Origin: an uncultured Lachnospiraceae bacterium
GTDB taxonomy: Bacteria > Bacillota > Clostridia > Lachnospirales > Lachnospiraceae
Direction: 5' to 3'
Assembly: GCA_964369755.1 (NCBI GenBank)
Contig: CAYJFY010000020.1
Coordinates: 1,408-25,407 of the forward strand
Length of the DNA: 24,000 nucleotides
How positions within the stretch are numbered: the stretch's first letter is position 1; each line of letters begins with the position of its first letter. A model generated the notes under the pieces. That model was not told the DNA's origin. It searched no databases and saw only the letters and a program-made list of their open reading frames with translations. Shown here one piece after another: positions 840-15,541 of the stretch. The position numbers and the translations under genes were made by a program.

Positions 840-1511
840 ATGCATGAAATTTTAATCATAGACGATGATATACATATCGGAAATCTGATAGAAGAATTGC
901 TAGTGAAAGAAAATTACAAAGTATTAAGAGCCTATTCAGGAACGGAGGCTCTATTATTATTGTCTACATACACACCAAATCTTGTGTTGTTGGACTTGAT
1001 GTTGCCAGGATTAAGTGGGGAAGAAGTTTTGCCGAAGATAAAAAATATTCCAACGATCATTATGAGTGCGAAGATAGACGTAGACCATAAGGTGGAATTA
1101 TTACTTGGTGGAGCAGTTGACTATATTACAAAACCATTTAACACAAAAGAATTACTTGCAAGGATTGCGGTGCAACTTAGAAAAGCCAATCATGTTACAG
1201 ATGAGTTCTTGTATTATGATAATTTGAAATTGGACACGCTACAGCATACAGTTTATGTAGGTGGAAAAGAAATAAAATTAACGAGAACAGAGTATGCTAT
1301 TTTGAAACTATTGATGCAAAACCATTCACAAGTAGTTACGAAATCCCTGATGTTGGATAGAATCAGTGGTGATACGCCAGATTGTACAGAAAATTCATTA
1401 AAAATCCATATTAGTAATCTGAGGAAGAAATTACGAGAGTTAGATGAAAAAGATTATATTGAAGCTGTTTGGGGAATTGGGTTTAAGTTAAGGGAGCATA
1501 ATCTTAACTAA
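840..1511 (+). CDS. OmpR/PhoB-family two-component response regulator (receiver + winged-helix DNA-binding domain)
   Basis: Receiver motifs are ILIIDDD, LVLLDLMLPGLSG (phospho-acceptor Asp) and a conserved Lys in ITKPF. The C-terminal Trans_reg_C-like region reads LTRTEYAILKLL...VWGIGFKL. An AAGGAG RBS lies 5-6 nt upstream of the ATG. Confidence 0.9.
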   Translation: MHEILIIDDDIHIGNLIEELLVKENYKVLRAYSGTEALLLLSTYTPNLVLLDLMLPGLSGEEVLPKIKNIPTIIMSAKIDVDHKVELLLGGAVDYITKPFNTKELLARIAVQLRKANHVTDEFLYYDNLKLDTLQHTVYVGGKEIKLTRTEYAILKLLMQNHSQVVTKSLMLDRISGDTPDCTENSLKIHISNLRKKLRELDEKDYIEAVWGIGFKLREHNLN

Positions 1512-1545
1512 ATCTTAACTATTTTCTTAACCACTTCCTTAACTC
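1501..1545. promoter_or_regulatory. Four phased direct repeats (core CTTAAC); candidate response-regulator binding site upstream of the ABC transporter genes
   Basis: ATCTTAACTA occurs at 1501-1510 and again, perfectly, at 1512-1521. TTCTTAACCA is at 1524-1533 and TCCTTAACTC at 1536-1545. Spacing is 11, 12 and 12 bp, about one helical turn. The array overlaps the stop codon of the RR gene and ends 43 nt before the ABC ATPase start. Confidence 0.4.
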
Positions 1546-1587
1546 TTTTGTTTTATTCTGTTTCTATCAAAGAAAAGGAAGGAATTG

Positions 1588-2508
1588 ATGAATATGAATC
1601 ATGTATTATGTGTCAATGGGGTATCGAAACGATATCGAAAAACAAAGGTGTTAAATAATCTTACTATGCAGATTCCTAGAGGATCTATCTATGGACTAGT
1701 GGGGAAAAACGGAGCGGGAAAGACTACAATTATTCGAATTATTTGTGGTTTACAAAATCCAACGGGCGGAAATTATAGTCTATATGGAGTAGATTATACC
1801 GATGAACAAATCGTGAAATTTCGAAAAAGAATGGGAGCAATTGTGGAAACACCCTCGATGTATCTGGATATGACTGCAAGTGATAATCTAAAGCAACAAT
1901 CCACTATCTTAGGCTTACCATCGTATGATGGAATAGATGAGCTTCTGAAACTTGTTAAGCTAGACCATGTGGGAAAGAAAAAGGCAAAACATTTTTCTCT
2001 GGGCATGAAACAGAGGCTTGCTATTGCAATTTCCCTTGTAGGCAATCCAGATTTTATCGTATTAGATGAACCAATCAATGGTTTGGATCCTCAGGGAGTA
2101 ATTGAAATCAGGGAATTGATCTTAAGACTCAACCGCGAACATCAGATTACTGTGCTTATATCTAGCCATATTTTAAGTGAGTTATCAAAACTTGCGACAC
2201 ATTTTGGTTTTATTGATGATGGTCGTATGGTAAAAGAATTGAGTGCAGAAGAATTGGAACAGGAATGCAGGAAATGTACCCGAATCGAAGTGACAAATAT
2301 AAAAACATTGGTCTATGTATTGGATGAAAAGGGAATTGATTACAAGATTTACTCAGATACAAAAGCAGATATTTATTCCAAGGTTCAGATTACAGAACTA
2401 GCCAATTTATTGTACAATAAAGGCTGTGAAATACTCTCTATATCAGAAAAAGACGAAGACTTGGAGAGTTACTATATGAATCTAGTGGGAGGTGGTAAGC
2501 ATGAATAA
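1588..2508 (+). CDS. ABC transporter ATP-binding protein (ABC-2/BcrA-like exporter ATPase with a C-terminal extension)
   Basis: Walker A is GKNGAGKTT, the signature is FSLGMKQRL, Walker B is FIVLDEPINGLD and the H-loop is SSH. The ORF track begins at TTG 1585. ATG 1588 sits 6-8 nt after a GGAAGGA RBS and is preferred. Confidence 0.9.
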   Translation: MNMNHVLCVNGVSKRYRKTKVLNNLTMQIPRGSIYGLVGKNGAGKTTIIRIICGLQNPTGGNYSLYGVDYTDEQIVKFRKRMGAIVETPSMYLDMTASDNLKQQSTILGLPSYDGIDELLKLVKLDHVGKKKAKHFSLGMKQRLAIAISLVGNPDFIVLDEPINGLDPQGVIEIRELILRLNREHQITVLISSHILSELSKLATHFGFIDDGRMVKELSAEELEQECRKCTRIEVTNIKTLVYVLDEKGIDYKIYSDTKADIYSKVQITELANLLYNKGCEILSISEKDEDLESYYMNLVGGGKHE

Positions 2509-3337
2509 CTTATTATCTTCTAATGTTATAAGAATCAAACGGGATAAAATATTCTGGAGTGTTGTAATAGCACTGTTTCTCGTGGTATTAGGTAGTATGA
2601 TAATCACTTGCGTCAATGTAGAGAAGTTGCCCGAAGATGCTACCTTCGAAGAGTATTACTTTAATTCAGCAACATATGTTGGTATGTTTTTGGCAGTGTT
2701 TTCTAGCATGTTTTTGGGAACGGAATATTCCAACGGTACCATCCGTAATAAAATGATTATCGGGAAGACTAGAACTTCGATTTATCTATCAAATTTTATT
2801 ACAAATGTTGTTGTATCTTTTCTATTAATTGTTGTAATATCTACAACTGCATTAGTTGGAATGCCCACATTGGGATTCTTCGACATTGGGATTCCAAATG
2901 TAATCGGAAATTTGATGGTTCTGCTATTTTCCATGGTTTCGTTGTCGGCAATCTTTACTTTTGTAGGAATGATTTGCTCAAATAGAACTTATACATTATT
3001 AATTTCACTCCTTGTATTATTAGTTCTTATCATGGCGGCGTCAAAATTAGATAGTATGCTTAAGGAGCCTGAAATGCTTGCTAGCGGTATTACACTGATT
3101 ACAGAAACGGGAGAATATGCCACAGAAATTAATCCAGAACCTAATCCCAACTATCTTACAGAAGATGCAAGGAATCTAGTTGAGTTAGCTATGGAGATGG
3201 TGCCTACAGGACCAATGATTAAAGTGGCTTATCTAGAGATGGAGAATTCTGTTAGAATGATGCTATTTTCAGTATTGAGTGCTAGTGTTATAACCTTCTT
3301 AGGGGTTCGGTGTTTTAGTAAAAAGGATTTAAAATAA
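2501..3337 (+). CDS. ABC-2 family transporter permease (about 6 TM segments)
   Basis: It overlaps the ATPase stop (ATGAATAA, ATG 2501; alternative GTG 2492). There are multiple hydrophobic helices (FWSVVIALFLVVLGSMIITC, YVGMFLAVFSSMFLG, ITNVVVSFLLIVVISTTALVG, LMVLLFSMVSLSAIFTFVGMI, TLLISLLVLLVLIMA, MLFSVLSASVITFLGV). Its position directly after an ABC ATPase supports the call. Confidence 0.75.
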   Translation: MNNLLSSNVIRIKRDKIFWSVVIALFLVVLGSMIITCVNVEKLPEDATFEEYYFNSATYVGMFLAVFSSMFLGTEYSNGTIRNKMIIGKTRTSIYLSNFITNVVVSFLLIVVISTTALVGMPTLGFFDIGIPNVIGNLMVLLFSMVSLSAIFTFVGMICSNRTYTLLISLLVLLVLIMAASKLDSMLKEPEMLASGITLITETGEYATEINPEPNPNYLTEDARNLVELAMEMVPTGPMIKVAYLEMENSVRMMLFSVLSASVITFLGVRCFSKKDLK

Positions 3338-3347
3338 GGAGAGTACT

Positions 3348-4229
3348 ATGGGTGTATGGATTTTATGTGTGGTTTTGTCTTTGGTAGTTATGATATTGAT
3401 TATCAAGTTACGTCTTATGAAAAAAAGCATGACAGAAATCCATACACAAATAGATACATGTTTGAGCGAAGATACTAATGCTTTGATTACTGTTACATCA
3501 AATGACAAAGATATCAAGTATCTGGCAATGAAACTGAATGAAGAACTAAGGATGCTTAGGTCTCAGAGTTTGAAGTATAAAAATGGTGACAATGAGTTAA
3601 AAGAAGCGGTTACGAATATTGCACATGACCTTCGAACTCCGCTGACTGCATTATGTGGTTACTTAGAACTGTTAGAAGAGAAAGAAAAAACAGAGGATGT
3701 AGCACGTTATATTGAATTAATTCGCAACCGTGCTGATAATCTAAAGGGACTGACAGAAGAGTTATTTCGATACTCAGTTATTATCTCTACATTGGATGAT
3801 ATCAATCTAGAGCCACTTTCTGTGAATCGTGTTTTGGAAGAATGTATTGCTAAGTCCTATGATTCGCTTACAGAGAGAGGAATTACACCTAGAATTGATA
3901 TTACTACGAATAAAATCATTCGAACACTAGATAAGGCAGCACTAATACGAGTGATTGAGAATATCATAAGCAATGCAATCAAGTACAGTGATGGAGATTT
4001 GGACATCGAATTGACAGATAGCGGAGAAATGATATTCACCAATACAGCAAGACGATTGGACGATATACAGGTTGGAAAGTTATTCAACCGTTTTTTTACG
4101 GTTGAAACAGCAGGGAAGGGAACTGGATTGGGACTGTCTGTTGCAAAAACATTGGTGGAACAAATGAATGGAAAGATAGCTGCTGAATATGTGGAGGGTA
4201 GGTTGAGTATTTGTATTTCTTATCATTAG
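3348..4229 (+). CDS. Sensor histidine kinase (single N-terminal TM, HisKA + HATPase_c; no extracytoplasmic sensor domain)
   Basis: The H-box is IAHDLRTPLTAL, the N-box NIISNAIKYS, the D/F region FNRFF and the G-box GTGLGLSVAKTLVEQMNG. The only hydrophobic segment is WILCVVLSLVVMILII, starting at residue 4. Confidence 0.9.
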   Translation: MGVWILCVVLSLVVMILIIKLRLMKKSMTEIHTQIDTCLSEDTNALITVTSNDKDIKYLAMKLNEELRMLRSQSLKYKNGDNELKEAVTNIAHDLRTPLTALCGYLELLEEKEKTEDVARYIELIRNRADNLKGLTEELFRYSVIISTLDDINLEPLSVNRVLEECIAKSYDSLTERGITPRIDITTNKIIRTLDKAALIRVIENIISNAIKYSDGDLDIELTDSGEMIFTNTARRLDDIQVGKLFNRFFTVETAGKGTGLGLSVAKTLVEQMNGKIAAEYVEGRLSICISYH

Positions 4230-4245
4230 TTCATTGTACGAAAAA

Positions 4246-4272
4246 TAAAATGCGGTCGTTTGACCGCATTTT
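4246..4272 (+). terminator. Rho-independent terminator after the histidine kinase gene
   Basis: There is a perfect 11-bp stem, AAAATGCGGTC (4246-4256) and GACCGCATTTT (4262-4272), with a 5-nt loop (4257-4261). The flanks are A-rich 5' and T-rich 3'. It lies 17 nt after the HK stop codon. Confidence 0.7.
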
Positions 4273-4274
4273 AT

Positions 4275-4303
4275 TTGACAATTTTCAAATTTATAAGTAT
4301 AAT
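4275..4303 (+). promoter_or_regulatory. Consensus sigma-A type promoter driving the toxin-antitoxin / R-M gene string
   Basis: TTGACA is at 4275-4280 and TATAAT at 4298-4303, separated by an exact 17-bp spacer. An AGGAGG RBS (4312-4317) follows. A small TACGTA palindrome (4305-4310) sits between the -10 element and the RBS. Confidence 0.65.
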
Positions 4304-4324
4304 GTACGTATAGGAGGTGGGTCG

Positions 4325-4675
4325 TTGGAGAATCAATCAAATAATTCAGACATAATAAGATTTCTTGAAAAAGTTAAAATATTATTATCTTCAGGGAAAT
4401 ATGATTTTGTTCCAAGAAGAAAAAATCTACAATCCTTAGCACTGCATGGACTTACAATCGCAGATGCTAGAGATGAGATTTTAGGATTAGTTGTAGATGA
4501 TTACTATAAAGGTCCTAAGCGAGATTTTGATACAAATAGACCCGGAGAAATATGGGAGTTTAAAAAGAATATTAATGGAATAAATTTCTATGTAAAAGTA
4601 AAAATAGTAAATGAAAATGGTGAAGATATATTGAAATGTCTAGGATTTCATGAAGATGAATTTTATAATAGATAG
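4325..4675 (+). CDS. MqsR-like type II toxin (putative ribosome-independent mRNA interferase)
   Basis: The start is assigned to TTG 4325, 7 nt after AGGAGG. The ORF-track start at 4211 would span the terminator and promoter. The sequence (..LHGLTIADARDEILGLVVDDYYKGPKRD...IWEFKK..FYVKVKIV..ILKCLGFHED) parallels my recollection of E. coli MqsR (LGLDFDGMCNVIIGLSESDFYKSM...IWQDVY..VYLKITV..LIVSFKE). The toxin-first gene order followed by a Zn-ribbon/HTH protein is as in mqsRA. Confidence 0.6.
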   Translation: MENQSNNSDIIRFLEKVKILLSSGKYDFVPRRKNLQSLALHGLTIADARDEILGLVVDDYYKGPKRDFDTNRPGEIWEFKKNINGINFYVKVKIVNENGEDILKCLGFHEDEFYNR

Positions 4676-4687
4676 GTGGTGGAGTTG

Positions 4688-5692
4688 ATGAAAAAATATT
4701 GTGAAGAATGTGGTAGAGAAGTAAAAACTACAATAATTGTAAAAAAAGAAGATTATAATGTTTGTGGTGAAACAATAGAAGTAGATGCTCAAATATTGAC
4801 ATGTGAAGAATGCGGTGAAGAATTTTATTGTGAAGAACTTGATAGTCAAACATTGATAGAAGCATACAATAAATATCGTAGACGACATAAACTTTTATTT
4901 GCTGAAGATATAAAGAGAATCAGAGTGCAATATGGACTAAGCCAGAGAAGTTTTGCAAAACTTCTTGGTTGGAGCGACAAAACTATTCGTAGATATGAAA
5001 ATGGTTCGATACAAGATAAATCACATAATAGTTTGCTTTTATTTTTGAAAGAACCTGAAAATATGAAAAGCTACATTGAAGAAAATGAAATAAAATTGGA
5101 TGATAAGCAAATCAATAAGCTATTACAGACAATTGAACAATTAGAACAAGGTAATGAGGATCAAATGAGGAGACGTCTATTTGAAATATTTTTTTCAACA
5201 ACTCCATCAGAAGATAACGGATTTAAAGTTTTTGATTATGATAAAACATGTGCAATGGTACTTTTTTTTGTAAATAAAATGGATGAGTTATTAAAAACAA
5301 AACTGTTGAAGCTCATCAATTATTCTGATATGATTTTTTATAAAGAGAATGGGGTATCTATTTCAGGAAGTCGCTATATTCATATGCCGTTTGGACCTGT
5401 TTTGAAAAATCATGATATTTTATTTGGAAAAATGGAATCTGACAATATTGCTCATATCAATATTGCAACCGAAGGGAAATATGAAAAACATCAAGTGGTT
5501 TCGGAGCATTCGTTTCCGAAGGACATATTATCTAAGAGTGAAATTGAAGTTTTAGAACGTGTATACAAGAAGTTCAAAGATTTTGGCTCTGTAGAAATAT
5601 CTGATTATTCTCATAAAGAAAAAGGATATTGCTCAACATCACATGGAGATATAATTTCATATTCGTATGCCAAATATATGTCATTGGATTAG
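4688..5692 (+). CDS. Tri-domain antitoxin: MqsA/YgiT-type zinc ribbon + XRE-family HTH + C-terminal Panacea (DUF4065, SocA/GepA-like) domain
   Basis: The zinc ribbon is CEECGREV...(about 30 aa)...CEECGEEF. The HTH reads IKRIRVQYGLSQRSFAKLLGWSDKTIRRYENG. The DUF4065-like core reads LLKTKLLKLINYSDMIFYKENGVSISGSRYIHMPFGPVLKNH. ATG 4688 follows a GGTGGTGGAG RBS, and in-frame GTGs at 4676 and 4679 are alternatives. It abuts the stop of the toxin gene. Confidence 0.75.
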   Translation: MKKYCEECGREVKTTIIVKKEDYNVCGETIEVDAQILTCEECGEEFYCEELDSQTLIEAYNKYRRRHKLLFAEDIKRIRVQYGLSQRSFAKLLGWSDKTIRRYENGSIQDKSHNSLLLFLKEPENMKSYIEENEIKLDDKQINKLLQTIEQLEQGNEDQMRRRLFEIFFSTTPSEDNGFKVFDYDKTCAMVLFFVNKMDELLKTKLLKLINYSDMIFYKENGVSISGSRYIHMPFGPVLKNHDILFGKMESDNIAHINIATEGKYEKHQVVSEHSFPKDILSKSEIEVLERVYKKFKDFGSVEISDYSHKEKGYCSTSHGDIISYSYAKYMSLD

Positions 5693-5754: not shown

Positions 5755-7470
5755 TTGACGGATAAAGAGTTAAAAGAATTAAAAGCAAAATTATGGAGTG
5801 CAGCAGATACATTACGTGCAGATTCAGGTTTGAAGTCTACTGAGTATTCGACGCCGATATTAGGTTTGATATTTCTAAGATTTGCAGACAGCAAGTATAG
5901 GGAATACGAAACCTGTATCGCAGAAGAATATAACCAGAATAAAGGTTCACGAATGGAAAGAGAAATCAGCGAAATAGCTATTGAAAAATGTGGTTTTTAC
6001 TTGCCAGAAGAGGCGAGATACGAATATTTACTGAATCTACCAGAGAGTGAAAATATTCCTGAAAAAGTAAAGAATGCTATGTTGGCTGTTGAGAAATATA
6101 CTCCAAATTTAGCAGATACCTTACCTAAAGACGAATATTATGCTGTTGATGGTAAAGATGGAAAGGCGGTTGTAAAAAGGCTGCTAAAAGCTTTTAAAGA
6201 TATACCAGATAATACGACAATTGATATTTTTGGTGAAATATATGAGTATTTTCTTGGAGAATTTGCACTTGCAGAAGGTCAAGGGGGCGGACAGTTCTTT
6301 ACTCCACCGTCAGTAGTTAAATATATGGTAGAGGTTCTTTCACCTGTTGACGGCGAGATATTCGATCCTGCTTGTGGTAGTGGTGGGATGTTTGTGCAAG
6401 CGGCTCACTATATCCAAAAGCATAAGAAAAACGGAAATAATATTAATCTTCGTGCTTATGGTGTAGAAAAGGACAAGTCTACAGTAAATTTAGCTAAAAT
6501 CAATATGGCATTACATAATATTCGTGGAACTATTATCGAAGCAAATAGTTACTATTCGGATCCATATGAATGTTTTGGGCGATTTGATTATGTTATGGCA
6601 AATCCACCATTTAATGTAGATGGAGTTGAACTTGAGGATGTTAAAAACCAAGCGAGGTTCAATACATATGGTGTGCCACAGAATAAAACCAAAAGCAAAA
6701 AATCAGCAGGAGAAACTGTACCAAACGGCAACTACTTATGGATTAACATGTTTGCAACATCTTTAAAAGCAAATACTGGAAAAGCAGCACTAGTTATGGC
6801 AAACTCTGCGTCGGATGCAGGGAAAAGTGAAAAAGACATTAGAACTAAATTGATAGAAAGTGGTGTAATAAGTCAAATGGTAACATTGCCTTCTAATATG
6901 TTTTCCACGGTAACATTGCCAGCAACCCTATGGTTTTTTGATGCTGCACGTAAAAATAAAGATGAAATTTTATTTGTAGATGCAAGAAATGTATTCACTC
7001 AAGTGGATAGAGCACATAGAAAATTCACTGATGAGCAAATCAAAAACCTTGCTATAATCTCAAGACTTTATGAAGGTAATACCGATGAATTCACTGCTTT
7101 GATTGAGGAATATAAAGTCGAAATCACTCGCTTAGAACAAGGTGGAGAAATTGAAGAGAAGAAAGATATAGAATATTGGCAGTCCAATATTGATTGGTTA
7201 CAAGAACGATTCCCAGAAGGTAAATATCAAGATGTAACTGGACTTTGTAAAGTTGCAAAAATAGAGGGTGAGGATGGAATCAAAGACCAAGACTATTCAT
7301 TAAACCCTGGACGATATGTTGGGGTTGTTATCGAAGATGATGGTATGACAGAGGAAGAATTTAAAGAAGAAATGTTGAGCTTACAGGCCGAACTCGAAAA
7401 GCTAAATGAAGAAGCACGAGAGCTTGAGAATAAAATTTCACAGAATTTGAAAGGACTGTTCAATGAATAA
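5755..7470 (+). CDS. hsdM: Type I restriction-modification system DNA methyltransferase subunit (N6-adenine)
   Basis: The N-terminal HsdM_N-like region reads LWSAADTLR...ILGLIFLRF. Other motifs are GQFFTPPSVV, motif I DPACGSGGMF and motif IV MANPPFN. TTG start at 5755 is 6 nt after a GGAGGA RBS. Confidence 0.95.
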   Translation: MTDKELKELKAKLWSAADTLRADSGLKSTEYSTPILGLIFLRFADSKYREYETCIAEEYNQNKGSRMEREISEIAIEKCGFYLPEEARYEYLLNLPESENIPEKVKNAMLAVEKYTPNLADTLPKDEYYAVDGKDGKAVVKRLLKAFKDIPDNTTIDIFGEIYEYFLGEFALAEGQGGGQFFTPPSVVKYMVEVLSPVDGEIFDPACGSGGMFVQAAHYIQKHKKNGNNINLRAYGVEKDKSTVNLAKINMALHNIRGTIIEANSYYSDPYECFGRFDYVMANPPFNVDGVELEDVKNQARFNTYGVPQNKTKSKKSAGETVPNGNYLWINMFATSLKANTGKAALVMANSASDAGKSEKDIRTKLIESGVISQMVTLPSNMFSTVTLPATLWFFDAARKNKDEILFVDARNVFTQVDRAHRKFTDEQIKNLAIISRLYEGNTDEFTALIEEYKVEITRLEQGGEIEEKKDIEYWQSNIDWLQERFPEGKYQDVTGLCKVAKIEGEDGIKDQDYSLNPGRYVGVVIEDDGMTEEEFKEEMLSLQAELEKLNEEARELENKISQNLKGLFNE

Positions 7471-8152
7471 TGAAAATTTACAATACTCTTTACAACCACT
7501 GAATAAGTTATTAGAGCAGTATGAGAAAGTAAATATAACTTTGATTAATAGTGTTTCAAATACATTACTAGACATTATAAAAATGTTTGAGAATATAGAA
7601 ATATCTCTTTGTGAAAATCAATATAAATTGGCTGAAACATTATCTTTGCTTGGAGGAGTACCGGCGAATTTCAAGGCATTAGAAAAACTAGGAGATAATC
7701 AGTTTATATGGTTTAAATCATTAGATAAAGGCTTGGTAGAAAAATTGAATACAAGCGAAAATACGAATCATTTATTGGATGAGTATATTAAGAAAGGTGA
7801 ATGTTTTGAAACTGATGAAATAATTAAAGCAATCAAAAAATCTAGTGCAATAAAAAAAAGAAAATTATTGTTTTCACAATCAATTACTGCTTATCGTAAT
7901 AAACATTATTTGCTAGGATGTGTAGGGCTAATTTCTATAATTGATATTTTTCTCAGTCAAATCAGTGGAGATGCAACAACAAAATTTATGAAAAAAGTGG
8001 ATTATATAGTAAAACAAGCATGTGCAGATGAAGTTCTTAATGATTACGATGCCAAATATTTTTATATGTCATTTGGTATTGAGAGAACATTAAAAACGTT
8101 ATTTGATTTTTCTGATTTTACGAAAGATGAACCAAACAATATACGAAACTAG
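7463..8152 (+). CDS. Hypothetical protein (229 aa, soluble, predicted helical) inserted between hsdM and hsdS
   Basis: ATG 7463 overlaps the hsdM stop by 8 nt (ATGAATAA), and an AAGGA lies 8 nt upstream. It is a clean 690-nt ORF in an otherwise tightly packed operon. I recognise no catalytic motif. The region LFSQSITAYRNKHYLLGCVGLISIIDIFLSQISGD recalls uncharacterised Firmicutes and phage-associated helical proteins. Confidence 0.6.
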   Translation: MNNENLQYSLQPLNKLLEQYEKVNITLINSVSNTLLDIIKMFENIEISLCENQYKLAETLSLLGGVPANFKALEKLGDNQFIWFKSLDKGLVEKLNTSENTNHLLDEYIKKGECFETDEIIKAIKKSSAIKKRKLLFSQSITAYRNKHYLLGCVGLISIIDIFLSQISGDATTKFMKKVDYIVKQACADEVLNDYDAKYFYMSFGIERTLKTLFDFSDFTKDEPNNIRN

Positions 8153-8221: not shown

Positions 8222-9466
8222 ATGGGTAATTGGGAAGAAAAGAAACTTGGTGATATTTTGAAAATCAAGCATGGCTATGCTTTTGAAGGAGAATTTATTA
8301 CTAATATTGAAAATGAAAATATTCTTGTTACTCCTGGGAATTTTAAAACAGGTGGTGGATTCAAATATTCAGGCAAGAAGTTTTATAATGGTAAGATTCC
8401 AGAAGAGTATAGATTAAAATCTAATGATATTATACTAACCATGACGGATTTAAGCAAAGAAAGTGATACTTTAGGGTATGCTGCATTAGTACCTAATGAT
8501 AAAAGGATATATTTGCATAATCAGCGAATTGGCTTGGTATATGACATTGATAATCGAGTAAGTAAAAATTTTTTGTATTGGATGTTAAGAACACCTTGGT
8601 ATCAAAAAAGAATAGTAAATACATCTAATGGAGCAAATGTTAAACATACTTCACCTAGCAGGATATATGCGTATGTCACAAAAGTCCCAGATTTCTCTAC
8701 ACAAGAACGCATTGCTGATATTTTATCTAATTATGATGATTTAATTGAAAATAATACTCGTAGGATTGAATTACTAGAAAAAGCATCACAGGAATTATAT
8801 AAAGAATGGTTTGTGCGTTTTCGTTTCCCTAATCATGAAAATACCAAGTTTGTAAATGGACTGCCAGAGGGATGGGAAGAGAAGAAACTAAAAACAATGT
8901 TTGATATAGGGTCGAGCAAAAGAGTATATTTATCTGATTACGTGGAAGAAGGGATTCCGTTTTATAGATCTAAAGAAATCATCCGACTTTCGGAAGGTCA
9001 AGCAATTAATGAACCATTATATATTAGTGACCAAGCTTTCAACAACTTTAATAATAAATTCGGAGCACCTAATAAAAATGATATCCTTATTACATCGGTA
9101 GGTACTATTGGTAAATGCTATATCTCGGATGGGCATGAATTTTATTTTAAAGATGGAAACCTAACTTGGCTAAGAAGTTCTAAAAATCCTTTGACTGCTC
9201 TCTTTGTTTTTTGTTGGTTAAATAGCAATTATGGACAACAGATACTAATAACATCTACTATTGGTACGTCGCAGAGTGCATTAACGATTGAAAATTTAAA
9301 AAACATTAAATTAATAGTACCATCTGAGGAAGTATTGATAAAGTTTACAAATCAAATTACGCTTATATTCGAAGAAAAAAATCAACTACAAAAACAAAAC
9401 CAAAATATAGCAAAACAACGTGATTTATTATTGCCACGTCTTATGAGCGGAAAATTGGAGGTGTAA
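8222..9466 (+). CDS. hsdS: Type I restriction-modification system specificity subunit (two target-recognition domains)
   Basis: TRD-leading strings are duplicated: GNWEEKKLGDILK at the N-terminus and EGWEEKKLKTMFD mid-protein. The central conserved spacer is IADILSNYDDLIENNTRRIELLEKASQELYKEWFVRFRFPNHE. The C-terminal conserved helix is QRDLLLPRLMSGKLEV. ATG 8222 follows a GAAGGTGGTG RBS, although the ORF track begins at 8210. Confidence 0.9.
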   Translation: MGNWEEKKLGDILKIKHGYAFEGEFITNIENENILVTPGNFKTGGGFKYSGKKFYNGKIPEEYRLKSNDIILTMTDLSKESDTLGYAALVPNDKRIYLHNQRIGLVYDIDNRVSKNFLYWMLRTPWYQKRIVNTSNGANVKHTSPSRIYAYVTKVPDFSTQERIADILSNYDDLIENNTRRIELLEKASQELYKEWFVRFRFPNHENTKFVNGLPEGWEEKKLKTMFDIGSSKRVYLSDYVEEGIPFYRSKEIIRLSEGQAINEPLYISDQAFNNFNNKFGAPNKNDILITSVGTIGKCYISDGHEFYFKDGNLTWLRSSKNPLTALFVFCWLNSNYGQQILITSTIGTSQSALTIENLKNIKLIVPSEEVLIKFTNQITLIFEEKNQLQKQNQNIAKQRDLLLPRLMSGKLEV

Positions 9467-9468
9467 AT

Positions 9469-9996
9469 ATGTCTGAAGAAATAAAAACACATTTAGTATC
9501 AAAAGTTTTTGATAATTTAAAAGATATTACACCTGCACTTATAGCCGTTGATATATGCACAGGTCTATTTATTTTTTTACCTGAAGAAATTTTATTACAA
9601 ATGAGATTAAATTTAATACCTGACTCGTGGTATTTAGTCATTAGTTTGATATTTATATTTTGCATATCATTAACAATTGTTATTGGTCTACGGTATATGT
9701 TAAATAAAGTTTATTTACAAATAAAGTATAAAAAAAGAATTAAAGGTTTAAGAACTAGTTATATTAATCTAAATAAAAAGCATAAAAACTTGATAAAAGA
9801 GTTGTTGAGATCTCAAGAAAAATCACTTCATTTTAATTATTATTCTGGTGATATAAAGTATTTGGTTAAAAATGCATTTATATATCAAACATCAAATATG
9901 ACAACACAATATGGAGAAACACACTTATACTTTCCATATAGTCCTCAACCTTGGCTTATAGATTTATATAATAGAGAACCAGAATTATTTGAGTAA
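9469..9996 (+). CDS. Small membrane protein, possibly superinfection-exclusion protein B (SieB)-family, inserted between hsdS and hsdR
   Basis: ATG 9469 is 2 nt after the hsdS stop, with a GGAGG RBS inside the hsdS 3' end. There are two hydrophobic segments (ITPALIAVDICTGLFIFL and WYLVISLIFIFCISLTIVIGL), a basic linker (KYKKRIKGLR) and a roughly 90-aa C-terminal domain ending YFPYSPQPWLIDLY. This pattern (..LFLP.., two TM segments, ..FPY.LQPW..) matches my recollection of Firmicutes proteins annotated as SieB family. It is unverified. Confidence 0.5.
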   Translation: MSEEIKTHLVSKVFDNLKDITPALIAVDICTGLFIFLPEEILLQMRLNLIPDSWYLVISLIFIFCISLTIVIGLRYMLNKVYLQIKYKKRIKGLRTSYINLNKKHKNLIKELLRSQEKSLHFNYYSGDIKYLVKNAFIYQTSNMTTQYGETHLYFPYSPQPWLIDLYNREPELFE

Positions 9997-10008: not shown

Positions 10009-13000
10009 ATGCCAAACTTTATATCAGAAGATAACATTGAGCAAGCTGCCATTCAAAAACTTGTAGATACAAATAAGTACAATTCCATCAATTGTTATAC
10101 TGCTGATCCCGACACCTTAGAGGATGGCAGTGGTAGAGCAGAGAAAAAGCAGGTTATATTACCAACTGTATTGCTAGAGAGTCTTGTACGGTTGAATCCA
10201 CAATTGCCTTTGCATTGTGTGGAGAAGGTAGCAGATGAATTGTCTAAAACACCTACAACAGTGGAATTGATGCGTGCCAATTATCTTGCATATCAACAAA
10301 TTCGAAATGGTATAAAAGTAGAGTATGATGAAAAAGGAAAAGAGCGTAAATCCAAGTTACAGATAATCGATTTTGAAGAACCTACAAACAATGATTTTAC
10401 TGTGGTATCCCAGCTATGGATTCGTGGAGAGGTTCACTGGCGTAGACCTGATTTGATTCTCTATGTAAATGGATTACCAATGGTATTCATCGAACTTAAA
10501 AATTCTAATATTAATGTGAAAAATGCGTATGATAAGAATTTAAGAGATTATCTAAAAGATATTCCATATCTATTTCACTACAATCAAGTCTGTGTACTAT
10601 CTAATGGTACTGAAACGAGACTTGGTAGTTTTGCTGCTGGATATGAACATTTTTTTGAATGGTTAAAAGTAGAAGATGAAAAGGAAAACCCAGATCGCAA
10701 AGCGATCAAAGAACATGCAATCAGTCTGGAATATTTGATTGATGGTTTACTAAAAAAAGAGACACTGATTGATTATATAGAAAATTTCATTTTATATGAC
10801 AGACAGAGAGTAAAGCTGATAGCGAAAAATCATCAATACCTTGGGGTAAACAATGCTTATAATGCTTTTCTAAATCGTGGAAATCTTGAGGGTAAATTGG
10901 GTGTATTCTGGCATACTCAAGGTAGCGGGAAGAGTTACTCAATGGTTATGCTTGCACGTAAAATTAAACATAAAGTCAATGGAAATTTCACATTTTTAGT
11001 TATAACAGATAGGGCAGATTTAGACACGCAAATCTGGAAGAACTTTTGCCGAACAGAATTTATCTCAAAGGATGAAAATGTTCGTCCGGCAACGGGAGCA
11101 AAGCTTCGAGAAGAATTAAAAAGCAATAAGACTATTTTGTTTACACTCATACATAAATTTAAATACGATAAGGGGAAATCGTATCCTATTTTATCAGAAC
11201 GTAATGATATTATTGTAATCGTTGATGAAGCGCACCGAACACAATATAAAGACTTGGCAGAGAATATGAGAAAAGGGTTGCCGAATGCACAATTCATGGC
11301 ATTTACAGGAACGCCATTGTTAGGTGCGAAAAGATTGACAAACTCTTGGTTCGGCGATTATGTTTCTGAGTATAATTTCGCCCAATCAGTAAAGGATAGT
11401 GCTACAGTTCCGCTATATTATGTAAATGGGATGAAAGAAGTTCGCCTACAAAACGATTTCTTGGATGAGGATTTGGCTGAAATACTGGAAGAGGAAGATT
11501 TAAAAGATGCTGAAAAAGAACGTCTTGAAAATCATTATGCAAAAGAGTTAGAAGTTATTAAGCGTGATGATCGGCTAGATAAAATAGCGAGACATATAGC
11601 GTATCATTTTCCACGTAGAGGATTTTTAGGAAAGGGCATGGTCATCTCTGTTGATAAATTTACAGTTGTTCGAATGTATAATAAGGTGAATTATTATTGG
11701 GATGAAGAAATTAAAAGCATTAACGCAGAAATCACAAAAACAGCTGATCAAGATAAGCGAATAGAATTGAAGCGAATGGTAGACTACATGCGAAAAGTTC
11801 AAATGGCAGTTGTCGTTAGCGAAGAAGATAAGGAAGAAGAAAAATTTCAAGAAGAAAAATTAACGATAAAACCACATAGAGATAGAATGAATGCTGTGGA
11901 TGAGAATGGCTTTGATATTGAAGATAACTTCAAAGACCCAGAACATCCCCTGAGTCTAGTTTTTGTGTGCTCCATGTGGCTAACTGGTTTTGATGCTCCT
12001 TCAGTATCAACTCTATATTTAGATAAACCGATGAAAGGTCATACCTTGATGCAGACCATTGCACGAGCAAACAGGGTGTACCCAAACAAAGAAAATGGTA
12101 TAGTCATCGGTTATCTTGACGTATTCAAATCTCTGAAAAAGGCATTGGTGGACTATGCAACAGATGATAGTGACGAGCTACCTGTTAAGGAAATAGACAA
12201 GCTGTATGACCAACTTTTAGAGTCGATTGAAGTTACTAAGACGTTTTGTCTAGCACAAGAAATTGATTTATCAAGATTAAATAATAGTGAAGATACATTT
12301 GCTAATCTATCTGATTTCGAAGATTTTGCTAATATTATTGTATCCAATGATGAAGTGAAGAATGAGTTTAGGGTGCTTGCTAATACAGTTGGGAATCTAT
12401 ATGAATCTTTGCGTCCAGATATTTTTAAAATGAATTTTGAAGCTAGCGATAAAGAAAAAATTCTTTATTTAAAAGAAATTATTGATGGAAAAATAAGACC
12501 AGAAAAAATAGAAAAAGCAAAGTACAGAATTGGTGAACTATTGAATCAAAGTATTATTGCAGAAGAGACAGCACCATATGGCACTAAAAATTCAGAAGAA
12601 ACAATGCAAATTATCACTATGGCAGAGCCGATTGATTTATCTAAAATAGATATTGATATATTAAAGGATAAAATAAAAAGATCAAATCATAAAAATTTAG
12701 AAATAGCAAATTTAAGACAGTATATAGATAAAAAATTAGCTCAGATGATAAAGAAAAATGTCTCCCGTATAAGTTTTGCCGAAAGATTTCGAAATATTAT
12801 AGATGAGTATAATGCAGGCGGTGCGTATAACGACGAATTTTATAAAAAACTATTAGAGTTTATGAGTGAATTAAGAGAAGAAGAAAGTAGACATGTCAAA
12901 GAAGAGTTAAGTGAAGAGGAATTAGAACTTTTTGATCTATTACAAAAGGAAAAGCTTACAAAAGAAGAATTGAAGCGTGTCAAACTTGCTGCAAGGCAAC

Positions 13001-13215
13001 TGTATCAGACATTAAAGGCAAAAAAAGATGAACTTTTTGTTGTAGGTTGGGAAAAAGATGAACAGCCAAAAGAAAAAGTAAGAAAAGAAATCAAGACTAT
13101 ATTAAATAAATATTTGCCAGATAGTTATAATCGGGAAATTTTTGTAAGTAAATCAGATACTATTTTCTACCATATTGTTGATCAGGCACTAATGGGTGTG
13201 AACTGGATTGCTTAA
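10009..13215 (+). CDS. hsdR: Type I restriction endonuclease R subunit (PD-(D/E)xK nuclease + SF2 DEAD/DEAH translocase)
   Basis: The N-terminal nuclease core is RPDLILYVNGLPMVFIELKN. Helicase motifs are I (HTQGSGKS), II (IVDEAHRTQY), III (MAFTGTP) and VI (QTIARANR). The C-terminal helical region has FAERFRNIIDEYNAG, typical of HsdR tails. An AAGGAG RBS lies 7 nt upstream. Confidence 0.95.
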   Translation: MPNFISEDNIEQAAIQKLVDTNKYNSINCYTADPDTLEDGSGRAEKKQVILPTVLLESLVRLNPQLPLHCVEKVADELSKTPTTVELMRANYLAYQQIRNGIKVEYDEKGKERKSKLQIIDFEEPTNNDFTVVSQLWIRGEVHWRRPDLILYVNGLPMVFIELKNSNINVKNAYDKNLRDYLKDIPYLFHYNQVCVLSNGTETRLGSFAAGYEHFFEWLKVEDEKENPDRKAIKEHAISLEYLIDGLLKKETLIDYIENFILYDRQRVKLIAKNHQYLGVNNAYNAFLNRGNLEGKLGVFWHTQGSGKSYSMVMLARKIKHKVNGNFTFLVITDRADLDTQIWKNFCRTEFISKDENVRPATGAKLREELKSNKTILFTLIHKFKYDKGKSYPILSERNDIIVIVDEAHRTQYKDLAENMRKGLPNAQFMAFTGTPLLGAKRLTNSWFGDYVSEYNFAQSVKDSATVPLYYVNGMKEVRLQNDFLDEDLAEILEEEDLKDAEKERLENHYAKELEVIKRDDRLDKIARHIAYHFPRRGFLGKGMVISVDKFTVVRMYNKVNYYWDEEIKSINAEITKTADQDKRIELKRMVDYMRKVQMAVVVSEEDKEEEKFQEEKLTIKPHRDRMNAVDENGFDIEDNFKDPEHPLSLVFVCSMWLTGFDAPSVSTLYLDKPMKGHTLMQTIARANRVYPNKENGIVIGYLDVFKSLKKALVDYATDDSDELPVKEIDKLYDQLLESIEVTKTFCLAQEIDLSRLNNSEDTFANLSDFEDFANIIVSNDEVKNEFRVLANTVGNLYESLRPDIFKMNFEASDKEKILYLKEIIDGKIRPEKIEKAKYRIGELLNQSIIAEETAPYGTKNSEETMQIITMAEPIDLSKIDIDILKDKIKRSNHKNLEIANLRQYIDKKLAQMIKKNVSRISFAERFRNIIDEYNAGGAYNDEFYKKLLEFMSELREEESRHVKEELSEEELELFDLLQKEKLTKEELKRVKLAARQLYQTLKAKKDELFVVGWEKDEQPKEKVRKEIKTILNKYLPDSYNREIFVSKSDTIFYHIVDQALMGVNWIA

Positions 13216-13283
13216 TATGACTTTTGTACCGAAAAACATGAAGAATATTGCTTATAGTTGCGAATATAGAGAGGGGGACAATT

Positions 13284-14012
13284 TTGAATATTTCATTGCT
13301 ATTGGAAAAAAAGGATTTATATAATAAAAACTTATACTTGATACCAGAAGAGGTGTTGAAAAAAATAAGAACAAGCTTTCATGTAGAATTTACACATAAC
13401 TCCACAGCTATCGAGGGTAATACTTTGACATTGATAGAAACAAAAGTATTATTAGAAGACAACGTTTCTATAGGTGGCAAAAAACTTCGTGAGATTTACG
13501 AAGTTGTGAATAACCACAAAGCTACTTTATATGTAGAAGAATGTATTGTACAAAATTTACCCTTAGATGAAAAAATCACAAAGGAAATTCATGCAATTAT
13601 CAATGAAAATATCATTGTTGGTGGAGTGTATCGAAATGATGTGGTTATGATTACAGGTGCGAGCTTCAGACCGCCCGTGGGTCAACAAATGTATCACGAA
13701 GTAAAAAATTTCTTTGCTGACTTAGATTATCGAACTGACCTAAACCCTATCGAACTTGCAGCATGGACGCACGCTGAATTTGTTCGTATTCATCCTTTTG
13801 TTGACGGAAATGGACGGACTGCAAGGCAGATTATGAACTATCAGCTTATGCGGAACGGATTTCCGCCTGTGTCAATATCAGCGAAGGAAAGTTTAGCTTA
13901 TTACAATGCACTTGATAAATATGGCTCTGTAAGAGATTTAACGTCATTTGCGGAACTTCTTGCAAATCTGGTAGAGAAAAGGTTTGATGAGTTTTTAGGA
14001 GATTTTGTATAG
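13284..14012 (+). CDS. Fic family protein (putative AMPylase) with an N-terminal auto-inhibitory helix motif (class II architecture)
   Basis: The Fic active-site motif HPFVDGNGRTAR is at 13791-13826. The inhibitory (S/T)xxxE(G/N) motif STAIEG is at 13401-13418. The start is assigned to in-frame TTG 13284, 6 nt after GAGGGGG, although the ORF track begins at 13248. Confidence 0.9.
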   Translation: MNISLLLEKKDLYNKNLYLIPEEVLKKIRTSFHVEFTHNSTAIEGNTLTLIETKVLLEDNVSIGGKKLREIYEVVNNHKATLYVEECIVQNLPLDEKITKEIHAIINENIIVGGVYRNDVVMITGASFRPPVGQQMYHEVKNFFADLDYRTDLNPIELAAWTHAEFVRIHPFVDGNGRTARQIMNYQLMRNGFPPVSISAKESLAYYNALDKYGSVRDLTSFAELLANLVEKRFDEFLGDFV

Positions 14013-14143: not shown

Positions 14144-15541
14144 ATGAATAAATTTGTGAATCGAATATCAGAACTCAATACTCTGAATTCTGAGTACGAA
14201 AGTAAACAATCTAATTTTGTTGTCATTTATGGTCGTCGTAGGGTTGGAAAAACATCATTGATTACAGAGTTTTTGAAGGACAAAGAAGATAGCATTTATT
14301 TTCTGGCTACAGAAGAATCGGAGAAACAAAATTTAAAAGGTTTTAGAAATCTTGTGGCTGATTATTTAGGGAATGAGCTTTTGAAGTCTGCGGACGTAGA
14401 GTGGTCAACGGTGTTTGAATATTTAGAAAAGTATCAATCCAATAGTAAACAGGTTATTGTTATTGATGAGTTCCAATATATTGGACAATCCAATCCTGCC
14501 TTTCCATCCGTGGTTCAAAAAATATGGGATACTCTGTTGAAAGATAGCAATATAATGATGATTATCTGTGGATCCTATATTTCTCTGATGAAGTCCCAAG
14601 CACTTAACTATTCAAGTCCTTTGTATGGGAGAAGAACGGCACAGATTAAGTTGAAACAAGTAGAATTTAAACATTATAATGAATTTTATCAAAACAAGTC
14701 TAATGAAGAACTGATTCCATTCTATGCGGTAACAGGAGGAGTTCCCAAGTATATTGAAATGCTCAGTGACCATGATGATGTGTATCGTGCGATAGAGAAA
14801 AATATTCTAGATAAGCAAAGTTTCTTGTATGAGGAACCTTATTTTCTGTTACAGAAAGAGGTAAATGAAATTGGGAGTTATTTCACACTGATTAAGGCTA
14901 TCGCTTTCGGCAATCATAAGCTTTCTGATATTTCAGCTGAAATGGGGGTGAAAGCCACAGGTATTACAAAATATCTGAAAGTTTTAATGGATTTAGATCT
15001 TGTGGTAAGAGAGGTACCGATTACGGAATCCAATCCAGAAAAATCAAAAAAAGGATTATATAAGTTGACGGATAACTATATAGCATTTTGGTTTAAATTC
15101 GTATACCCTTATCGAGTTTTTCTAGAAAGGGGGGAGAAGGATTTTGTTTTAAATAAGATGAAAGAAGGATTTGTTCAGAATTATGTATCCTATGTATATG
15201 AAGATATCGCAAGAGAGAAGATGTGGGCACTAAATATAGCGGGAACGTGGGGATTCAACTTCGATAAATTAGGTCGATATTGGGGGAATAAACTAGGTGA
15301 AGTAGATATTGTAGCAATTGATAGCATCGAGAAAAATTTGATTGTAGGGGAATGCAAATATACAAAATCTGAAAAGGGATTGAATGTACTTCACGCATTA
15401 GAAGAAAAAGGCGAGGTATTAAGAAAACTCACAAAATCTAAAAATGTAGAATATATTCTCTTCAGCACAGGTGGATTTACAAAAGGACTTTTAGATGTAG
15501 CGGAACAAAATCCCAAAATAAAACTTATTGATAAGCTGTGA
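14144..15541 (+). CDS. ATP-binding protein: P-loop ATPase (archaeal-ATPase/ATPase_2-like) + winged-helix + C-terminal DUF234-type PD-(D/E)xK nuclease-like domain
   Basis: The N-terminus FVNRISELNTLNSEY...FVVIYGRRRVGKTSL contains Walker A, and Walker B is VIVIDEFQY. The wHTH-like region is LSDISAEMGVKATGITKYLKVLMDLDLVVRE. The C-terminal GEVDIVAIDS...LIVGECKY fits a D...ExK nuclease signature. Confidence 0.8.
   Translation: MNKFVNRISELNTLNSEYESKQSNFVVIYGRRRVGKTSLITEFLKDKEDSIYFLATEESEKQNLKGFRNLVADYLGNELLKSADVEWSTVFEYLEKYQSNSKQVIVIDEFQYIGQSNPAFPSVVQKIWDTLLKDSNIMMIICGSYISLMKSQALNYSSPLYGRRTAQIKLKQVEFKHYNEFYQNKSNEELIPFYAVTGGVPKYIEMLSDHDDVYRAIEKNILDKQSFLYEEPYFLLQKEVNEIGSYFTLIKAIAFGNHKLSDISAEMGVKATGITKYLKVLMDLDLVVREVPITESNPEKSKKGLYKLTDNYIAFWFKFVYPYRVFLERGEKDFVLNKMKEGFVQNYVSYVYEDIAREKMWALNIAGTWGFNFDKLGRYWGNKLGEVDIVAIDSIEKNLIVGECKYTKSEKGLNVLHALEEKGEVLRKLTKSKNVEYILFSTGGFTKGLLDVAEQNPKIKLIDKL

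Follow-up and report, generated by a model that had tools for sequence, protein, structure and literature searches.

SieB is one of the oldest known exclusion or abortive-infection (Abi) genes. When P22-like phages superinfect, the SieB protein of phage P22 brings macromolecular synthesis to a halt halfway through their lytic cycle (PMC10883804); SieB is itself inhibited by Esc, which is encoded in frame within sieB (PMC3224144; PMC12197685). A second group of relevant systems is embedded in type I restriction-modification (R-M) loci. Intervening open reading frames (ORFs), called rlo and mlo, are a described feature of the type I loci of Campylobacter (PMC5183652). RonA, a protein of 61 aa with one transmembrane (TM) segment, is toxic on its own; HsdMS suppresses it, ArdA, Ocr and Aop1 act as its triggers, and no type I system was present in 77% of the E. 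coli genomes with RonA-type systems (bioRxiv 10.1101/2023.04.06.535777). Here we describe ORF175, a gene between hsdS and hsdR in a 24,000-nucleotide stretch of DNA (the window) from an uncultured Lachnospiraceae bacterium (GenBank assembly GCA_964369755.1, contig CAYJFY010000020.1, positions 1,408 to 25,407). Its product is very probably a SieB-family membrane defence accessory of the R-M operon. Judged by comparative genomics, ORF175 would be an Abi-type accessory gene embedded in a type I operon, which is a known kind of arrangement.

ORF175 belongs to the SieB family

The Pfam profile for SieB (PF14163) matches ORF175 with an E-value of 9.8e-16 and a score of 58.1 bits, over profile positions 4–146 of 147. 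The gathering score of this profile is 26 bits, and SieB of phage lambda scores 103.5 bits. A first-pass annotation of the window had placed the protein in the SieB family, an assignment that this hidden Markov model search shows to be correct. When a profile built from 50 family sequences was compared with the phage proteins using hhalign, lambda SieB was aligned with a probability of 94.8% (E 5e-8, 135 columns) and P22 SieB with a probability of 83% (E 9e-6, 121 columns). The alignments are collinear, running through the N-terminus, both hydrophobic segments (TM1 and TM2), the basic stalk and the first part or half of the C-terminal domain, and about 17–21% of the aligned positions are identical between ORF175 and the phage SieB proteins. 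Among 1.84 billion cluster representatives searched exhaustively with HMMER, 561 relatives were found at E≤1e-3, 95 of them at E≤1e-10; almost all stand alone as proteins of 165–200 aa with the same layout as ORF175. By sequence, profile and predicted architecture, ORF175 is a member of the SieB family. Because a curated family is matched and nearly all of the 561 relatives share its layout, we also regard it, on these sequence grounds, as a real gene and not a chance reading frame.

NCBIfam, PHROGs and PADLOC gave nothing significant on ORF175. A PADLOC match to ThsA1 of TM-Macro Thoeris (aa 25–106, E 0.004) was followed up and rejected as compositional similarity, three of 50 family members matching the same model, with a best E-value of 0.0015 and over the TM region only. 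Searches with tblastn against 50,697 phage genomes and against plasmid collections found no match for ORF175, and neither did a megablast search of plasmids with the whole hsd locus. Among the sequences of the PDB, a profile search found no solved relative.

Position and composition of the gene

The operon has the order hsdM-orf229-hsdS-ORF175-hsdR, with all genes on one strand, and its type I system is complete (Table 1). The hsdS stop codon (TAA) occupies positions 9464–9466 and is followed, after 2 nt, by the ATG of ORF175. At the other end, the ORF175 stop codon (9994–9996) is separated from the hsdR ATG at 10009 by a spacer of 12 nt, which bears hsdR's own AGGAG. The sequence thus confirms the position and the two gaps given in the first-pass annotation, along with the ribosome-binding site that it had placed inside hsdS. 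It also agrees with the idea that ORF175 occupies the position of prrC, that is, the slot X in the same-strand order hsdM-hsdS-X-hsdR. Between hsdM and the Fic gene 3' of hsdR, no terminator-like site is present on the + strand. Promoter-like sites in the window are at shuffle level (59 found versus 59.8 expected), which leaves no ground for claiming an internal promoter. Given both observations, the simplest reading is a single transcript with translational coupling, in which ORF175 would be coupled to hsdS and co-transcribed with the R-M genes. The repeats flanking ORF175 are short and at chance level, with none that would mark an insertion cassette, and the domain scans of the window found no phage genes around the locus.

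The G+C content of ORF175 is 23.9%, close to the earlier spot count of about 23%, and compares with 31.3% for hsdS, 33.7% for hsdR, 35.9% for hsdM and 34.7% for the window. Such a composition is what a horizontally acquired AT-rich gene would show that is merely tolerated and has no current role, and the pseudogenisation of the gene in human-gut lineages (see below) would fit with this too. We nevertheless regard a passenger gene as very improbable. The reading frame is intact, it keeps all family-conserved residues except Ser59, where the family has a glycine, and it is preceded by a strong, well-placed Shine-Dalgarno sequence. Furthermore, intact copies with 34–58% identity occupy the same slot in many divergent loci, which argues for purifying selection.

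Predicted protein architecture

The AlphaFold2 model of ORF175, calculated from a 36-sequence alignment, has a mean predicted local distance difference test score (pLDDT) of 91.7. It consists of a helix of residues 2–36, a short helix of residues 39–44, a long helix of residues 52–99 and then a compact alpha/beta domain. The two hydrophobic segments and the basic juxtamembrane stretch that had been noted at first inspection are borne out by the hydropathy and charge values (Table 1). Among 152 family members, mean hydropathy peaks at TM1 and TM2, and the mean net charge of the stalk is +6.1. Hydropathy and charge bias together suggest membrane insertion. The basic stalk and the slightly acidic loop point, by the positive-inside rule, to a hairpin with both termini inside (N-in/C-in), which would place the C-terminal domain in the cytoplasm.

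Conserved positions of the C-terminal domain are Leu101, Lys106, Gly127, Leu132, Ile138, Tyr157 and the Gln160-Pro161-Trp162 triplet. The sequence YFPYSPQPW, which had been taken for the end of the protein, spans residues 154–162 and is followed by 13 more residues (LIDLYNREPELFE). Modelled alone, the C-terminal domain has a pLDDT of 93.1 and a predicted TM-score of 0.81. Foldseek found no significant match in the PDB for either the full or the domain-only model (best E-value 0.13). The top matches in these searches are nearly all winged-helix proteins: TcaR, AbfR, NadR, HsmR, MepR (MarR-family), QsrR, HxlR and replication terminator protein, with query TM-scores of 0.5–0.61 for the domain-only model. 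We therefore describe the modelled domain as winged-helix-like in topology and make no further claim. In the BFVD, the second-ranking structural match (probability 1.0, query TM-score 0.43) is to a P22 protein of 195 aa encoded in the N-operon region, which is also the location of sieB.

The winged-helix-like topology invites the idea of a restriction helper, either a membrane tether holding the type I enzyme near the site of phage DNA entry or a winged-helix regulator of hsdR expression or activity. Co-translation with HsdS, the subunit nucleating the complex, would fit such a role, and EcoKI has been reported to be membrane-associated. However, none of the fold matches reaches significance, and basic residues barely outnumber acidic ones in the domain (9 Lys/Arg versus 8 Asp/Glu). 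Where homologues have a known phenotype, as with P22 and lambda SieB, it is exclusion or abortive infection. An R-M partner is absent for most of the family, and R-M stays intact where the SieB-like gene has decayed. A helper function is thus improbable in our view.

As annotated for P22, esc starts at codon 25 of sieB and lacks the first 24 codons. What Esc lacks is the counterpart of the family's conserved N-terminal helix, which suggests that this helix is needed for activity and that SieB may act as an oligomer. In ORF175, codons 2–44 contain no ATG, GTG or TTG that could provide an Esc-like internal start, and no internal methionine column is conserved in 152 family members. It would appear that there is no analogue of Esc, as expected where no resident phage needs sparing.

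Linkage of the closest clade to type I restriction-modification

In a word-indexed search of 5.8 billion proteins, a single relative of ORF175 has more than 35% identity. It is encoded directly 3' of hsdS, in an operon of the order hsdM-96aa-hsdS-SieB-AbiH-three small ORFs-hsdR. Close-clade loci were then sought in GTDB genomes and JGI metagenomes by the motifs KVFDNFKKIT and PWLIDLY, and phmmer was run with Hsd queries on all loci. A motif-based search is biased towards the close clade, and many of the metagenomic contigs are short or near-duplicates. The close clade comprises 14 loci with a full-length or contig-cut copy, at 34–58% identity, and at ten of them the SieB-like gene directly adjoins hsdS and/or hsdR. 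With M, S and R standing for the hsd genes, the order is S-SieB-R in the window, S-SieB-AbiH-...-R in L001, S-112aa-SieB-R in L002, S-SieB-DUF4062-R in L004, SieB-R in L015 and L020, S-SieB in L016 and L019, S-SieB-176aa-R in L021 and M-S-SieB in L039. At all seven direct hsdS-SieB junctions of the clade, the gap is about 14 nt or less. Locus L018 has its copy within an R-M locus but upstream of hsdM, adjoining AbiH, while L014 and L017 are contigs of 1.3 kb with no recognisable hsd flanks and say little. The intact copy of L003, from a Neisseriaceae metagenome-assembled genome (MAG), has no R-M genes in 12 kb and lies between a hydrolase gene and a HEPN/MNT-like pair. A literature search found no published report of a PF14163 protein as a type I R-M-linked gene; the tie between the closest SieB clade and type I R-M, as read from these gene neighbourhoods, appears to be new here.

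The linked genes are not confined to one type of R-M system. Metagenomic and MAG copies are mostly from one R-M family, in which HsdR is 71–75% and HsdM 71–74% mutually identical. The SieB-like proteins of that family are 35–58% mutually identical, suggesting that they evolve fast, as conflict genes do, and out of step with the R-M core. The R-M system of the window is different: its HsdR can be aligned with that of the other clade loci only over 50–230 residues, at 25–33% identity, and its HsdM is 24–27% identical. A third family, with an EcoR124-type C-terminus, is represented by locus L009, where a distant member (P0064, 22% identical) is found in the order hsdR-hsdM-hsdS-SieB; this order ties the gene to hsdS, not to hsdR. 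Judging from these comparisons, type I families with a SieB-like gene 3' of hsdS number at least three and are unrelated to each other. The window's SieB-like protein is 34–41% identical to those of the other R-M family, a value inside the spread seen among the latter, although the HsdR proteins can barely be aligned, which points to capture or exchange of the gene across at least three type I families.

Loci L022–L038, on human-gut metagenome contigs, carry a decayed SieB-like pseudogene directly 5' of an intact hsdR of 1101 codons (for example, at 7815–8213 in L027). The pseudogene has a frameshift and has lost the TM region; its N-terminal motif can be read in another frame and its last 67–90 codons are intact. 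In L033–L035, the remnant is read through into hsdR, giving an apparent fusion. We do not consider this a designed fusion, as the pseudogene has lost its stop codon and the start of hsdR is unchanged.

Other Abi-type genes, unrelated to sieB, are also carried in these operons and encode AbiH, DUF4062, NERD, AbiJ_NTD4 and STAND-like ATPase proteins. AbiH is an immediate neighbour of the SieB-like gene, on either side, in L001 (10544–11572), L016 (759–1145) and L018 (1538–2794), so SieB and AbiH may be recurrent partners in type I operons. Small membrane proteins of 112–213 aa, mutually unrelated and with one to several hydrophobic helices, are encoded beside hsdS or hsdM at several loci (Table 1). 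They echo RonA and suggest that membrane proteins are paired with hsdS more widely. In L005, a 3.5-kb contig of a Bacteroidales MAG, a frameshifted close-clade SieB-like gene (807–1336) adjoins the gene for a 587-aa DUF262/GmrSD-like protein (1436–3199), a defence context without type I genes on the contig.

Distant family members that were sampled are found in other settings: beside an MmeI-like type IIG methyltransferase gene in an integrative element, near SIR2 and EAD7 genes, beside integrase genes, near a prophage, beside TCAD9 genes, or with no telling context. At 12 of 12 loci of the distant subfamily, eight of them on viral contigs, there are no hsd genes within 7 kb. A scan for the subfamily motif NIQPWAW yielded these eight viral copies, while the close-clade motifs had no match on viral contigs. 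Many PF14163 members lie in islands. The picture suggested by these neighbourhoods is of a mobile-element and prophage family, including SieB of lambda and P22, of which one clade has been domesticated into type I operons.

In lambda (L040, 34087–35036) and P22 (L046, 29349–30336), sieB is the divergently transcribed neighbour of ral, a phage gene that alleviates type I restriction. This neighbourhood could be a coincidence of lambdoid synteny, but it is intriguing in view of the chromosomal SieB clade found within type I R-M operons.

An autonomous second layer or a guarded effector

We give about an even chance to the reading that ORF175 is an autonomous abortive-infection or exclusion module of the SieB type, co-expressed with the R-M system as a second layer of defence. 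The protein would be harmless in the membrane before infection. Its C-terminal cytoplasmic domain would sense a cue given by a phage that got past restriction, upon which the hairpin, probably oligomeric, would compromise the membrane, and macromolecular synthesis would halt before progeny are formed. Co-transcription with the R-M genes would provide joint inheritance and expression of both layers, and no physical control by the R-M enzyme would be needed. Defence activity, trigger, membrane mode of action and autonomy from R-M are all things that we infer from the family, its neighbourhoods and the predicted architecture.

Several observations argue for autonomy. Both P22 SieB and lambda SieB are active from a prophage, all 12 distant loci lack nearby hsd genes, and the intact close-clade copy of L003 stands alone. 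The operons concerned are shared by unrelated Abi-type genes. Finally, the SieB-like protein evolves much faster than HsdM and HsdR of the same loci, and human-gut lineages with an intact hsdR carry a decayed copy of the gene.

A different mode of action, akin to that of PrrC and Ronin and with the protein wired into the R-M complex as the first-pass annotation had it, is possible, though we consider it the less likely of the two. HsdS and HsdM, or the whole enzyme, would bind the SieB-like protein via its winged-helix-like domain and silence it; when a phage DNA mimic or other anti-restriction protein, such as Ocr, ArdA or an Stp-like protein, attacks the enzyme, the SieB-like protein would be released and its hairpin would kill or arrest the cell. 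ORF175 is in the slot of prrC, and PrrC, in a type IC locus, becomes active upon the inhibition of EcoPrrI by Stp of phage T4 (PMC12707154). A membrane effector tied to HsdMS has a direct precedent in RonA (bioRxiv 10.1101/2023.04.06.535777). The short gaps at all seven close-clade hsdS-SieB junctions, the position 3' of hsdS also in L009, and the apparent capture or exchange of the gene across type I families fit in as well. Against such a guard, the family at large needs no R-M system, L003 has none, and other Abi genes share the slot. There is also no co-conservation with HsdM and HsdR, and RonA-type systems are typically without hsdR, whereas hsdR is complete here.

Some of the same evidence tells against an autonomous second layer. 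A generic hot spot for cargo would not require so strict a placement 3' of hsdS, with tiny gaps and across three type I families that are unrelated; a guard fits this better. L003 is the only close-clade copy clearly without R-M. Eight of the ten linked copies are in one R-M family and may go back to a single capture. Membrane compromise, for its part, is deduced from the architecture and from the old P22 phenotype.

If a guard model were true, ORF175 would be the full-R-M counterpart of Ronin and PrrC. It would hint that the prophage-borne SieB of lambda and P22, next to ral, senses something tied to type I restriction, and would offer a handle on the mechanism of SieB.

Neighbouring genes

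The operon contains a second intervening gene, orf229, between hsdM and hsdS (Table 1). Pfam, NCBIfam, PHROGs and PADLOC gave no family for its product, apart from a weak match to CDI_toxin_EC869_like (restriction-endonuclease-like, E 0.005). Its single homologue among the 5.8 billion proteins, P0191, has 310 aa and 47% identity and is encoded directly 3' of a 570-aa hsdM (L055, L056). From this, orf229 looks like a second accessory gene of its R-M family.

Directly 5' of hsdM, on the + strand, a toxin-antitoxin-like pair occupies positions 4211–5692. It is formed by an ORF of 154 codons for an MqsR-like protein (E 5e-4, below the Pfam cut-off), followed by the gene for a 338-aa protein with MqsA-like zinc-ribbon/helix-turn-helix and SocA/Panacea domains. 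On the other side, 32 nt 3' of hsdR, lies a Fic-domain gene (PADLOC PDC-S04/SoFic-like; 13248–14012, + strand). Fic-like ORFs are also present directly 5' of hsdM in L002 (2648–3709) and L004 (3796–4854), SieB-carrying loci of a different R-M family, and a Fic gene may be a recurring feature of such operons. A gene at 14144–15541 (+ strand) encodes a protein with ATPase_2 and DUF234 domains that hits PDC-S27, a PADLOC candidate system (E 1.4e-56). With these genes, the stretch between 4.2 and 15.5 kb has the look of a defence island; MCP, GGDEF and MnmA genes are located downstream in the window.

Table 1. Features of the type I operon and of ORF175 (window coordinates), and small membrane proteins encoded in other type I operons (coordinates of the respective locus).
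Feature	Position	Strand	Basis or remark
hsdM, type I methyltransferase subunit, 571 aa	5755–7470	+	Pfam N6_Mtase 5e-77, HsdM_N 7e-21
orf229, accessory ORF between hsdM and hsdS (mlo-type)	7463–8152	+	overlaps hsdM stop by 8 nt; 26.8% G+C
hsdS, specificity subunit, 418 aa	8210–9466	+	Pfam Methylase_S, two stretches, 2.5e-27
GGAGG Shine-Dalgarno sequence of ORF175, within last hsdS codons, 7 nt 5' of ATG	9457–9461	+	sequence
ORF175, SieB-family (PF14163) membrane protein, 175 aa, ATG start	9469–9996	+	ORF reading, Pfam
N-terminal helix, aa 1–20, conserved K-x-F-D-x-F/L-K motif	9469–9528	+	AlphaFold2, family conservation
TM1, first hydrophobic segment, aa 21–38, ends in conserved LF-x-P	9529–9582	+	Kyte-Doolittle 1.5–1.9
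Short acidic loop, aa 39–53, probably outward-facing	9583–9627	+	1 Lys/Arg versus 3 Asp/Glu; family net charge −0.6
TM2, second hydrophobic segment, aa 54–76	9628–9696	+	Kyte-Doolittle up to 2.95
Basic helical stalk continuing TM2, aa 77–100, probably cytoplasmic	9697–9768	+	7 Lys/Arg, 0 Asp/Glu; AlphaFold2
C-terminal alpha/beta domain, winged-helix-like topology (model), aa 101–175	9769–9993	+	domain-only AlphaFold2, Foldseek
hsdR, restriction/translocase subunit, 1068 aa, complete	10009–13215	+	Pfam HSDR_N, SWI2_SNF2, ResIII, T1R_D3-like, T1RH-like_C
Small membrane protein, L002	7644–7982
Small membrane protein, L027	4886–5293
Small membrane protein, L019	1230–1796
Small membrane protein, L034	4158–4799
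Small membrane protein, L004	6353–6826

Comparison with known systems

ORF175 shares with lambda and P22 SieB the Pfam family, a similar length (175 versus 184–192 aa) and a collinear layout. It differs in being chromosomal, within a type I R-M operon and not in a prophage immunity region, and in having no Esc device. As many PF14163 members lie in islands, the prophage setting describes the founding SieB members rather than defining the family. The chromosomal clade that follows hsdS offers a defined and simple genetic context for testing the trigger and action of SieB.

With PrrC of the type IC system EcoprrI, ORF175 has in common the location of an accessory gene between hsdS and hsdR, on the same strand, and the candidate role of a back-up Abi layer. 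The two are unrelated in sequence and domains: PrrC is a soluble, ABC-ATPase-like anticodon nuclease for tRNA-Lys, while ORF175 is predicted to have two TM segments, SieB is the sole significant family and no ATPase or nuclease domain was found in it. Control by the R-M enzyme is proven for PrrC; for ORF175, it is proposed by analogy.

In terms of the rlo and mlo ORFs of Campylobacter jejuni, ORF175 has the position of an rlo gene and orf229 that of an mlo gene. The literature search found no PF14163 member reported among such type I-linked ORFs. PADLOC 2.0 has no model for the SieB-like family, so loci of this kind will be annotated as plain R-M. In gut Firmicutes, the junctions S-R and M-S of type I operons suggest themselves as places rich in new Abi cargo.

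Ronin of E. coli ECOR55 resembles the present locus in that a small membrane protein is tightly linked to hsdS and hsdM. As an experimental precedent, it makes a pairing of R-M with a membrane effector less novel than the first-pass annotation had assumed. Size and architecture set the two proteins apart, RonA having 61 aa and no soluble domain and ORF175 having 175 aa and a folded cytoplasmic domain, according to the model. Ronin is usually an hsdR-less decoy, whereas ORF175 is found beside a complete hsdR. To the effectors embedded in type I systems, namely PrrC, RloC and RonA, ORF175 would add a folded membrane protein that can be assigned to a family.

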